From the sequence record PP925828.1: 64,000 nt of DNA; one strand, 5' to 3'. Both the position numbers and the translations under genes were made by a program. Each line of letters starts with the position of its first letter. Position 1 is the stretch's first letter. The notes beneath the pieces were generated by a model. The model was not told the DNA's origin and made no database searches. It saw only the letters and a program-made list of their open reading frames with translations. Positions 30,201 through 30,696 of this stretch are shown here, in pieces. Source of the stretch: Escherichia phage SpoonbillGilly.

Positions 30201-30696
30201 ATTTATATTGAATTGAGAGACATTAGTAAAAATTGATTTTGCTAATTTTTCTTGTTTACAATCCGCAATACGGAACAGTTAGGCTGCCCCATTAAGGGTT
30301 GTTTTAACTATTACTAGTGTTTATACTGCATTAGTTAATTATCAATTAAGTGATCTGCGTACCCTGAATTCGGAAAGGTAAATCCAAACCGTGCATATTT
30401 AGCTCGTTATATAGGCAGAGCTTTATATGGGGGTGCGAACGAAAAGAGCAGCGAATGGTGACACGTCCAGTAGCCACCTACCAATAGGATAGTGAGGGCA
30501 ATCAGAATCGGCTTAGCGGCCAATGACCTAGGTTCTGATCTGGATAAGAGTTAAGAGAGCGCAGCACTGAGGTATGATAACTTATTCATACTGCTTGATG
30601 ATGATTAATGTTTGTGTAAATGGTAGTAATAGTTGTTCTATTCTTTTGAATAGTCCTAAAGAAAGATATTCGAATAACCAACATAGGAGTATTGTT

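Follow-up and report, generated by a model that had tools for sequence, protein, structure and literature searches.

Gene D2 of T5-like phages is separated from the early promoter upstream of it by almost half a kilobase of DNA, and the question raised by this locus is what that DNA does. We analyzed it in a 64,000-nt stretch of phage DNA, hereafter the window. Judged by its sequence, the source of the window is a T5-like phage (Epseptimavirus); the segment 30080-30720 shares 99.7% identity with genomes of Salmonella Epseptimavirus. The gap upstream of D2 is present in 522 to 537 records of T5-like phages. A preliminary description of the window had offered a regulatory RNA element, a replication origin or primosome site, and an unannotated small gene as possible explanations for it.

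An early promoter with an exceptionally long leader

The promoter was claimed to consist of TTGCAG at 30172-30177, a 17-nt spacer and TATAAT at 30195-30200, and these coordinates proved correct. An A/T tract lies upstream of it. A simple sigma-70 scan of the window did not list this promoter, because TTGCAG matches TTGACA at three of six positions. The arrangement TATAAT-N6-18-TGAGAG, which we regard as typical of early T5 promoters like PN25, is found at 10 sites in the window, compared with 0.25 expected by chance, and the one at 33735 is presumably nearly identical to T5 PN25 (Table 1). The ten promoters have the common form TATAAT-N7-ATAAATTTGAGAG(AGGAG). By analogy with other promoters of the class, transcription of the D2 leader would start at approximately A30207.

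At the nine other promoters the start codon is located ~20 to 33 nt past the inferred start site (~120 nt for one tandem promoter), and the transcribed GAGAGAGGAG is also the ribosome-binding site. The leader of D2 measures ~490 nt, and its length is thus as unusual as had been claimed. The earlier statement that this ~0.49 kb contains no open reading frame (ORF) of at least 60 aa was likewise borne out, the longest self-contained ORF in 30201-30696 being one of 43 aa on the - strand. The two GC-rich strings quoted from the leader were located at 30430-30459 and 30510-30532.

At the homologous position, three independent T5 reference records annotate a terminator followed by the early promoter "T5P32," and they leave the sequence from there to D2 without annotation. 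The terminator ends the upstream DUF7415 gene pair, which consists of two adjoining paralogous genes (29247-29675 and 29685-30080). In phage Shivani an HNH homing endonuclease gene occupies the DUF7415 position, and two other relatives (L015 and L028) have unrelated upstream sequence. Since the upstream sequence is swapped among relatives, a recombination breakpoint coincides with the promoter. In one T5-like contig (L031, ~894 and 1017), a second copy of the promoter-proximal ATAAATGAGAGACATTAGTAAA is found upstream of the terminator, which represents a small local duplication.

Table 1. Features of the D2 locus and early promoters of the same class, with their positions in the window
Feature	Position	Strand	Basis
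Intrinsic terminator, hairpin ACCGAGTCA-TTT-TGGCTCGGT then T-run	30104-30130 (hairpin 30104-30124)	+	Terminator scan; rho-independent terminator in T5 records
T5-type early promoter TTGCAG-17-TATAAT	30172-30200	+	Sequence; TATAAT-N-TGAGAG family; promoter in three T5 records
Early promoters of the TATAAT-TGAGAG class (ten sites)	6127-, 7968-, 12721-, 14892-, 26883+, 30195+, 33735+, 35984+, 45843+, 45944+	as marked	
P1, 5'-proximal hairpin, 16 bp, GAGAGA-C-AUUAGUAAAA / UUUUGCUAAU-U-UUUCUU	30215-30253	+	Folding; covariation
P1b hairpin, tip with near-invariant strand AUACGGAACAGUUAGGCUGCCCC	30258-30302	+	RNAalifold; tip conserved in lineages A-E
P2 5' arm, long closing helix of ~37 bp with small loops and several G.U pairs	30305-30345	+	Inverted repeat I1; pair list of the minimum free energy (MFE) fold; covariation
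P2 3' arm	30595-30635	+	Inverted repeat I1; MFE pair list; covariation
P3-closed core domain (P3, 30349-30365 with 30554-30568)	30349-30568	+	MFE and RNAalifold
GC-rich sub-domain inside P3, less well defined, holding the first of the two GC-rich strings	30369-30460	+	MFE and RNAalifold
Three-way junction inside P3, with hairpin b as second arm	30465-30545	+	MFE and RNAalifold
Hairpin b: outer helix 30501-30509/30531-30539, inner stem GGC/GCC, hexaloop UUAGCG 30513-30518, 3' bulge 30522-30530	30501-30539	+	Covariation
P7 hairpin GGUAUGA-UAACUUAU-UCAUACU, inside P2	30571-30592	+	Folding; helix 15 of the RNAalifold model, 3 of 5 pairs changed on both sides
3' hairpin CUAUUC-UUUU-GAAUAG	30638-30653	+	Folding; invariant in types A and B
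Shine-Dalgarno AGGAG (30686-30690) and gene D2, GTG 30697, 929 aa	30686-33486	+	ORF list; Pfam Herpes_ori_bp; PHROG 3712

The gap almost certainly does not code for protein

In sequence records D2 is called "replication origin binding protein," DEAD/DEAH helicase or "DNA primase C." Its biochemistry is that of a bipolar SF2 helicase, and it has been proposed to be the replication initiator (PMC3632103). A search with its N-terminal domain against the PDB returned one weak helical match only, to RNase H3 (E of 0.007), which we judged unconvincing.

Comparison with relatives confirmed GTG 30697 as the start of D2, and AGGAG or GGAG is kept before the annotated start. The window also has an ATG in frame with D2, at 30574, where some annotators start the gene. 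We rejected it as the true start, since it is absent or stopped in relatives. In T5, just 78 nt of open frame precede the D2 GTG, without a start codon, and in the L045, My1, Klebsiella, Providencia and Proteus lineages in-frame stops are found 0 to 39 nt upstream of the ATG or GTG.

We searched both strands of nine lineages for ORFs of at least 25 aa. None was common to the lineages, and all had weak or rare starts; the 43-aa ORF of the - strand is missing from one of the two versions of the region, type B (see below). The most conserved nucleotide strand is read in differing frames between lineages, because of an indel. No ORF thus combined a start codon and ribosome-binding site with in-frame conservation in relatives, and, to the extent that comparing sequences allows, the small gene or upstream D2 start put forward earlier is refuted. 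Although some GenBank records annotate ORFs of 33 to 50 aa in the gap or an upstream ATG, and ATG 30574 is in frame in the window, it is hardly conceivable that the gap is an unannotated small protein gene or part of an N-terminally longer D2. Small ORFs that are spurious, or a false start of D2, have been introduced there by gene callers, and the records need correcting.

Compensatory changes support a structured RNA of the + strand

The + strand of the gap has a minimum free energy of -142 kcal/mol and a z score of -4.37 relative to dinucleotide shuffles, compared with -2.51 for the - strand. In 10 of 11 lineages the z score was more negative for the + strand than for the - strand, a rough comparison with 16 shuffles each.

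Related loci were collected via the D2 protein. They represent seven enterobacterial lineages: A (the window and T5), B, C (L045), D (Pectobacterium phage My1), E (Klebsiella Sugarlandvirus), F (Providencia) and G (Proteus). The segments 30207-30317 and 30615-30665 are almost invariant in Tequintavirus and Epseptimavirus, even where the upstream gene has been replaced outright. For the core of 290 nt between these flanks there are two versions, type A, which the window and T5 share, and type B. They are of equal length and can be aligned nearly without gaps at ~50% identity, with conserved islands, such as GGCTTAGCGGCC, within the core.

We performed an unbiased test by aligning six type A and five type B sequences with MAFFT and folding them with RNAalifold. 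The model comprised 109 pairs, 26 of which had changes on both sides, much of this A-versus-B covariation being a contrast between two clades. In total, 99.1% of the cells were paired, compared with 91.3 ± 0.6% when the 3' partners were shuffled (none of 500 shuffles reached the observed value), and pairing dropped to 36 to 48% when the partners were slid by 1 to 3 columns. The helices of the two core types fall in identical columns. Comparison of Epseptimavirus with T5 showed a C-G to U-A change in P3 and, in the outer helix of hairpin b, C-G to U-A and U-A to A-U changes. At one position of P2, the window has A-U, T5 has G.U and type B has G-C. Intermediates of this kind, together with the abundance of G.U pairs in the helix, fit an RNA of the D2 strand and not the complementary strand or duplex DNA.

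To extend the comparison across lineages, we manually placed P1, P2 and hairpin b in register with the structure and aligned them with N padding, ignoring N cells. As these alignments were fitted to the structure, their paired percentages are upper bounds: 90.9% for hairpin b (11 sequences from seven lineages), 90.6% for P1 (six sequences from five lineages) and 100% for the basal part of P2 (six sequences from four lineages). The slid and shuffled controls, as well as the variety of pair types, are still informative. With shuffled partners the values were 58.5 ± 3.3%, 72.0 ± 3.0% and 80.4 ± 2.8%, respectively (0 of 500 shuffles reached the observed value for hairpin b and for P1), and with slid partners 30 to 50%, 42 to 56% and 33 to 57%. 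Both sides had changed in 11 of the 13 pairs of hairpin b, 12 of the 19 pairs of P1 and 15 of the 27 pairs of P2.

With hand registration and the two-clade contrast as caveats, the compensatory changes exceed both the shuffled and the slid controls, which is what characterizes conserved structured RNAs in general. The comparative alignment over T5-like phages called for in the preliminary description thus revealed compensatory changes, in up to seven enterobacterial lineages. We consider it very probable that the gap contains a functional structured RNA of the + strand. Of the regulatory RNA element proposed earlier, the conserved + strand structure holds, given the covariation of P1, P2 and the UUAGCG hairpin and the z scores (-4.4 versus -2.5); the regulatory role itself is putative.

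Architecture of the leader RNA

Folding and covariation show the gap to be a multi-domain structured RNA, with a predicted extent of ~430 nt on the + strand, between the T5 early promoter and the D2 start codon (Table 1). The two 5' hairpins, P1 and P1b, span approximately +9 to +96, a segment with 100% conservation in types A and B. P1 sequesters the GAGAG tract, which is the Shine-Dalgarno region at other promoters of the class; in L026 one of its G.U pairs is changed to A-U. The outer stem of P1b varies by lineage, with ACAAUCC/GGGUUGU in the window, GGGAU/AUCnCC in L045 and L033, and GAGCAU/AUGCUU in Klebsiella phages, as compared by eye.

Directly after P1, 51 phage records of core types A and B alike have an optional module of 97 nt between two copies of TTTTTCTT (L019:958-1054). 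The window, where the corresponding position is ~30253/30254, does not have this module. It carries an 8-bp hairpin of its own, AUUUACGG...CCGUAAAU. We rejected the idea that this insertion is a multi-copy mobile element, as it is single-copy and always at the same locus. It could be an extra leader domain gained or lost via the direct repeat.

P2 is composed of 11 + 9 + 10 + 7 bp with loops of 1 to 2 nt between them, and it closes a branched core of ~250 nt, yielding a P2-closed domain of ~330 nt. This predicted and covariation-supported helix offers the stretch of at least ~20 bp of near-continuous double-stranded RNA that defines RNase III sites. In the core, P3 shows compensatory changes when type A sequences are compared with one another and when they are compared with type B (helices 6-7 of the RNAalifold model). 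A T5 nick motif, GCGC at 30561-30564, was considered as a functional site and rejected: T5 itself has GCAC at this position, with a compensating change in helix P3.

Hairpin b corresponds to the second of the two GC-rich strings noticed earlier. Its CTTAGCGG is invariant, and its loop CUUAGCGG is invariant across all seven lineages. In the surrounding part of the window it is the sole TTAGCG hexaloop of the + strand closed by at least 3 pairs. A model seeded with hairpin b gave a 17.7-bit match at 13356-13394 (-) with an E of 0.054, most likely by chance. The UUAGCG loop exposes AGC, a serine codon, and six of its positions (one G.U) are complementary to the anticodon loop UUGCUAA of the phage tRNA-Ser(GCU) at 5674-5767. 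Pairing between the two is a speculative lead that was noticed post hoc, with a probability of coincidence estimated at ~3%. As any UU-NNN-R loop would match its cognate tRNA in the same manner, the coincidence is a mild one.

The positional equivalent of P7 in types B to E is GGGG-AAGUUGCCA-CCCC. The 3' hairpin is not an intrinsic terminator because it is without a U-tract; judged by eye, the Klebsiella and Providencia lineages have a similar small hairpin downstream of P2. The 3' hairpin is separated from the ribosome-binding site by ~30 nt, and the conserved domains stop ~45 nt upstream of the Shine-Dalgarno sequence.

A candidate new RNA family

The Rfam scan suggested in the preliminary description yielded tRNAs only when the whole window was searched at gathering thresholds. 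With Rfam 15 at E ≤ 10, the region 30050-30750 gave just one 14-bit snoRNA-like chance match, outside the leader, and at E ≤ 1 there were no leader matches in nine related loci. Scans for tRNAs and tmRNA (ARAGORN and RF00005) found none near 30.2 to 30.7 kb, all 16 to 17 tRNAs being at 650-11225. The 17th is a tRNA-like sequence at 3711-3782 (-) that scored 33.3 bits with the Rfam tRNA model and is absent from the ARAGORN output. Full-text searches of the accessible literature turned up neither a T5 leader RNA described as such, nor an origin mapped to the leader, nor RNase III processing. We regard the leader RNA as real, conserved and previously unannotated, and as a candidate new RNA family specific to T5-like phages.

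Spread among T5-like phages

Lineages A to F have the terminator hairpin, the T5-type promoter and an ORF-poor leader of 470 to 620 nt, and lineage G (Proteus) has a T5-type promoter and a 760-nt leader. In the lineage of Proteus phage Stubb, a consensus promoter TTGACA-18-TATAAT with a short leader is found between the 760-nt structured region and D2 (L046:1435-1465), so that D2 does not depend on the long leader alone in those phages.

The Vibrio and Aeromonas members of the family have unannotated gaps of 0.65 to 1.5 kb upstream of the OBP gene, three of four of which fold better than shuffles on the OBP strand. In Aeromonas phage AhSzw-1 this stretch is 1.5 kb long (NC_047950, 50276-51785) and is located between the divergent nrdD gene and the DUF91 and OBP genes. 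It has two UUAGCG hexaloop hairpins on the OBP strand (L042:143 and L042:408), each closed by 5 bp, and the 4.1-kb locus contains no other TTAGCG; folding of 1,000 nt of it (L042:1-1000) gave a z score of ~-5. Vibrio phage phi 3 has a 1.1-kb gap (L040:375-1431) with a GC content of 50%, compared with 41% in the gene, and z scores of ~-3.2 for the + strand and ~-0.4 for the - strand, without an Rfam match. This gap may hold another large RNA, either distinct or strongly diverged, at the same position.

An nhmmer profile of lineages B to E found no matches in the Providencia, Proteus, Vibrio and Aeromonas loci. Homology beyond lineages A to E therefore relies on motifs and structure only, which suggest that lineages F and G and the Vibrio and Aeromonas gaps are related to the leader RNA. 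A covariance model seeded with types A and B only (R1) detected A and B strongly and Providencia weakly, being too sequence specific. We also scanned IMG/VR and metagenomes with a two-motif pattern, GAACAGTNNGGCTGC followed after 215 to 245 nt by CTTAGCGG. It was found in 31 IMG/VR contigs, all T5-like and once per genome. The metagenomes yielded eight T5-like contigs and five GC-rich matches, the latter near the number estimated for chance. These scans revealed no new lineages.

Tentative function of the leader RNA and its alternatives

The reading that we prefer, as quite possible if somewhat short of probable, is that the leader is a cis-acting post-transcriptional control and processing module of the D2 mRNA. 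The structured RNA would be the 5' untranslated leader of that mRNA. P1 would hide the GAGAG tract used elsewhere as a ribosome-binding site and would cap the 5' end with a stable hairpin, the 37-bp helix P2 would be a likely processing site for a double-strand-specific RNase (RNase III type), and the UUAGCG loop and the tip of P1b may be docking or recognition surfaces for a phage or host factor. The bound factor would set the output of D2, a putative initiator helicase that is potentially toxic, from a very strong promoter, possibly with feedback.

The terminator scan found no terminator-like sites within 30201-30696. In types A and B the structure is followed by neither a terminator nor a conserved internal promoter before D2 begins, and in lineages A to F we saw nothing resembling either; the long-leader transcript must therefore be the one from which D2 is translated. 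The sister promoters, with their leaders of ~20 to 33 nt and their use of GAGAGAGGAG for ribosome binding, also count in favor of a cis-acting leader. Long helices in phage early leaders (lambda N and T7) and in rRNA precursors are processing sites. With such RNase III-type leaders (lambda N, T7 early mRNA, E. coli pnp and rnc, and rRNA stalks) the T5 leader shares a long imperfect terminal helix, here of ~37 bp, its presence on a phage early transcript and its location between promoter and start codon. In contrast, those are single hairpins or stalks around known RNAs, whereas the T5 helix, a predicted site, encloses a conserved branched core of 250 nt. Like the T4 gene 43 hairpin and gene 32 pseudoknot, the leader of a replication gene here carries a hairpin with an invariant loop, which could bind a phage protein for feedback; unlike in those operators, the UUAGCG hairpin is ~180 nt upstream of the ribosome-binding site and does not overlap it. 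Cis control is also weakened by the fact that no conserved domain kept across lineages visibly sequesters the Shine-Dalgarno sequence. A weak 5-bp hairpin presents that sequence in its loop in types A and B only, and no alternative pairing was identified. Moreover, the Proteus promoter between the structure and D2 and the intervening gene in Aeromonas suggest that the RNA may work independently of D2 translation.

A less likely possibility is that the core closed by P2 represents a novel class among the large structured RNAs of phages and has its own function, either as a processed trans-acting RNA or as a pre-primer or loading platform for D2, with UUAGCG as a specific contact. Taken separately, a stable trans-acting non-coding RNA appears unlikely. 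The core of ~330 nt would be cut from the leader, in the way that long processing stalks release rRNAs, and act on a host or phage target, for instance as a decoy or scaffold for a UUAGCG-recognizing protein, and adjacency to D2 would merely reflect conserved gene order. The closed architecture with its long terminal helix would suit such an RNA, as would the evolution of the core as a module between invariant flanks, the separate D2 promoter downstream of the structure in Proteus phages, and the two UUAGCG hairpins kept in AhSzw-1 with another gene between them and the OBP gene. Size and phage origin recall ROOL and GOLLD, large RNAs of phages and prophages that are likewise structured over hundreds of nucleotides and were found by conservation and covariation. 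Nevertheless, the T5 RNA has no Rfam model match, is smaller, is confined to T5-like phages and is an mRNA leader rather than the neighbor of tRNA genes. No terminator or other 3' end signal follows the structure either, so that in types A to F it is not a simple independent gene.

The same transcript might instead prime replication, which we find improbable. The structured RNA would hybridize persistently to the template and prime or open the DNA for D2, in the manner of ColE1 RNA II and the promoter-dependent T4 and T7 origins. The strong promoter followed by ~490 nt of untranslated structured RNA, a size like that of RNA II, is compatible with this, and so are the first 150 nt, which are AT-rich at 26 to 33% GC. 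ColE1 RNA II, T4 oriF and oriG and the T7 origins resemble the T5 leader in having a promoter-driven untranslated RNA of ~0.5 kb beside replication functions, and the folding of RNA II matters for its function. They differ in that the T5 leader has no conserved antisense partner, mapped origin, skew signal or sequence similarity to them, and its transcript runs into a protein gene. The iteron search of 30050-30750, whose part from 30150 to 30400 has 26 to 33% GC, detected short two-copy repeats at chance level only, hence no iterons or repeated binding sites. The only strong antisense promoter-like site, at 30804-30776 (-), falls within the D2 coding sequence and is missing from type B and other lineages; an antisense promoter of the RNA II type was thus not conserved. 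Cumulative GC skew, a weak test in phages, has no extremum at the leader (30.2 kb) and turns with gene orientation at ~23 kb (22 to 24 kb) and 52 kb.

Published data bear on this proposal in both directions. The leader immediately precedes the gene of D2, the putative initiator helicase (PMC3632103), and old electron microscopy work reported multiple internal T5 origins (Bourguignon 1976, as cited in PMC3632103). However, the skew "origin" of a T5-like genome is 3.5 kb from the OBP gene (PMC5519627), the strand bias of recombitrons indicates dominant unidirectional replication of T5 from one genome end (PMC10055335), and T5 is said to supply most replication genes itself (PMC3632103), so that transcript priming may not be needed. 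Without iterons or a skew switch, and with replication indicated to be mainly unidirectional, the origin or primosome site considered in the preliminary description has gained no positive evidence.

Finally, it is very improbable that the leader promotes processive antitermination or modifies the polymerase, with P1 and P1b as put-like hairpins that allow read-through of the 3.3-kb D2 unit: although the position of these conserved hairpins right behind the start site and their two-hairpin layout resemble the put RNAs of HK022, they match no Rfam family in sequence or model, the 330-nt P2 domain is left unexplained, and we identified no terminators inside D2, further promoters being present at 33735 and beyond.

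Significance for T5-like phages

Although T5 is a classic model phage, little is understood of how it initiates replication and controls its early replication genes. A stretch of 0.5 kb is blank in all three T5 reference records, and a covariation-supported RNA of ~430 nt precedes the putative initiator helicase there. This leader RNA is conserved over the enterobacterial T5-like lineages, and similarly long, mostly well-folding gaps are present in more distant members. As a candidate new family it joins the short list of large structured phage RNAs, and it provides a concrete, mutable element for the control of D2 expression or of origin firing.
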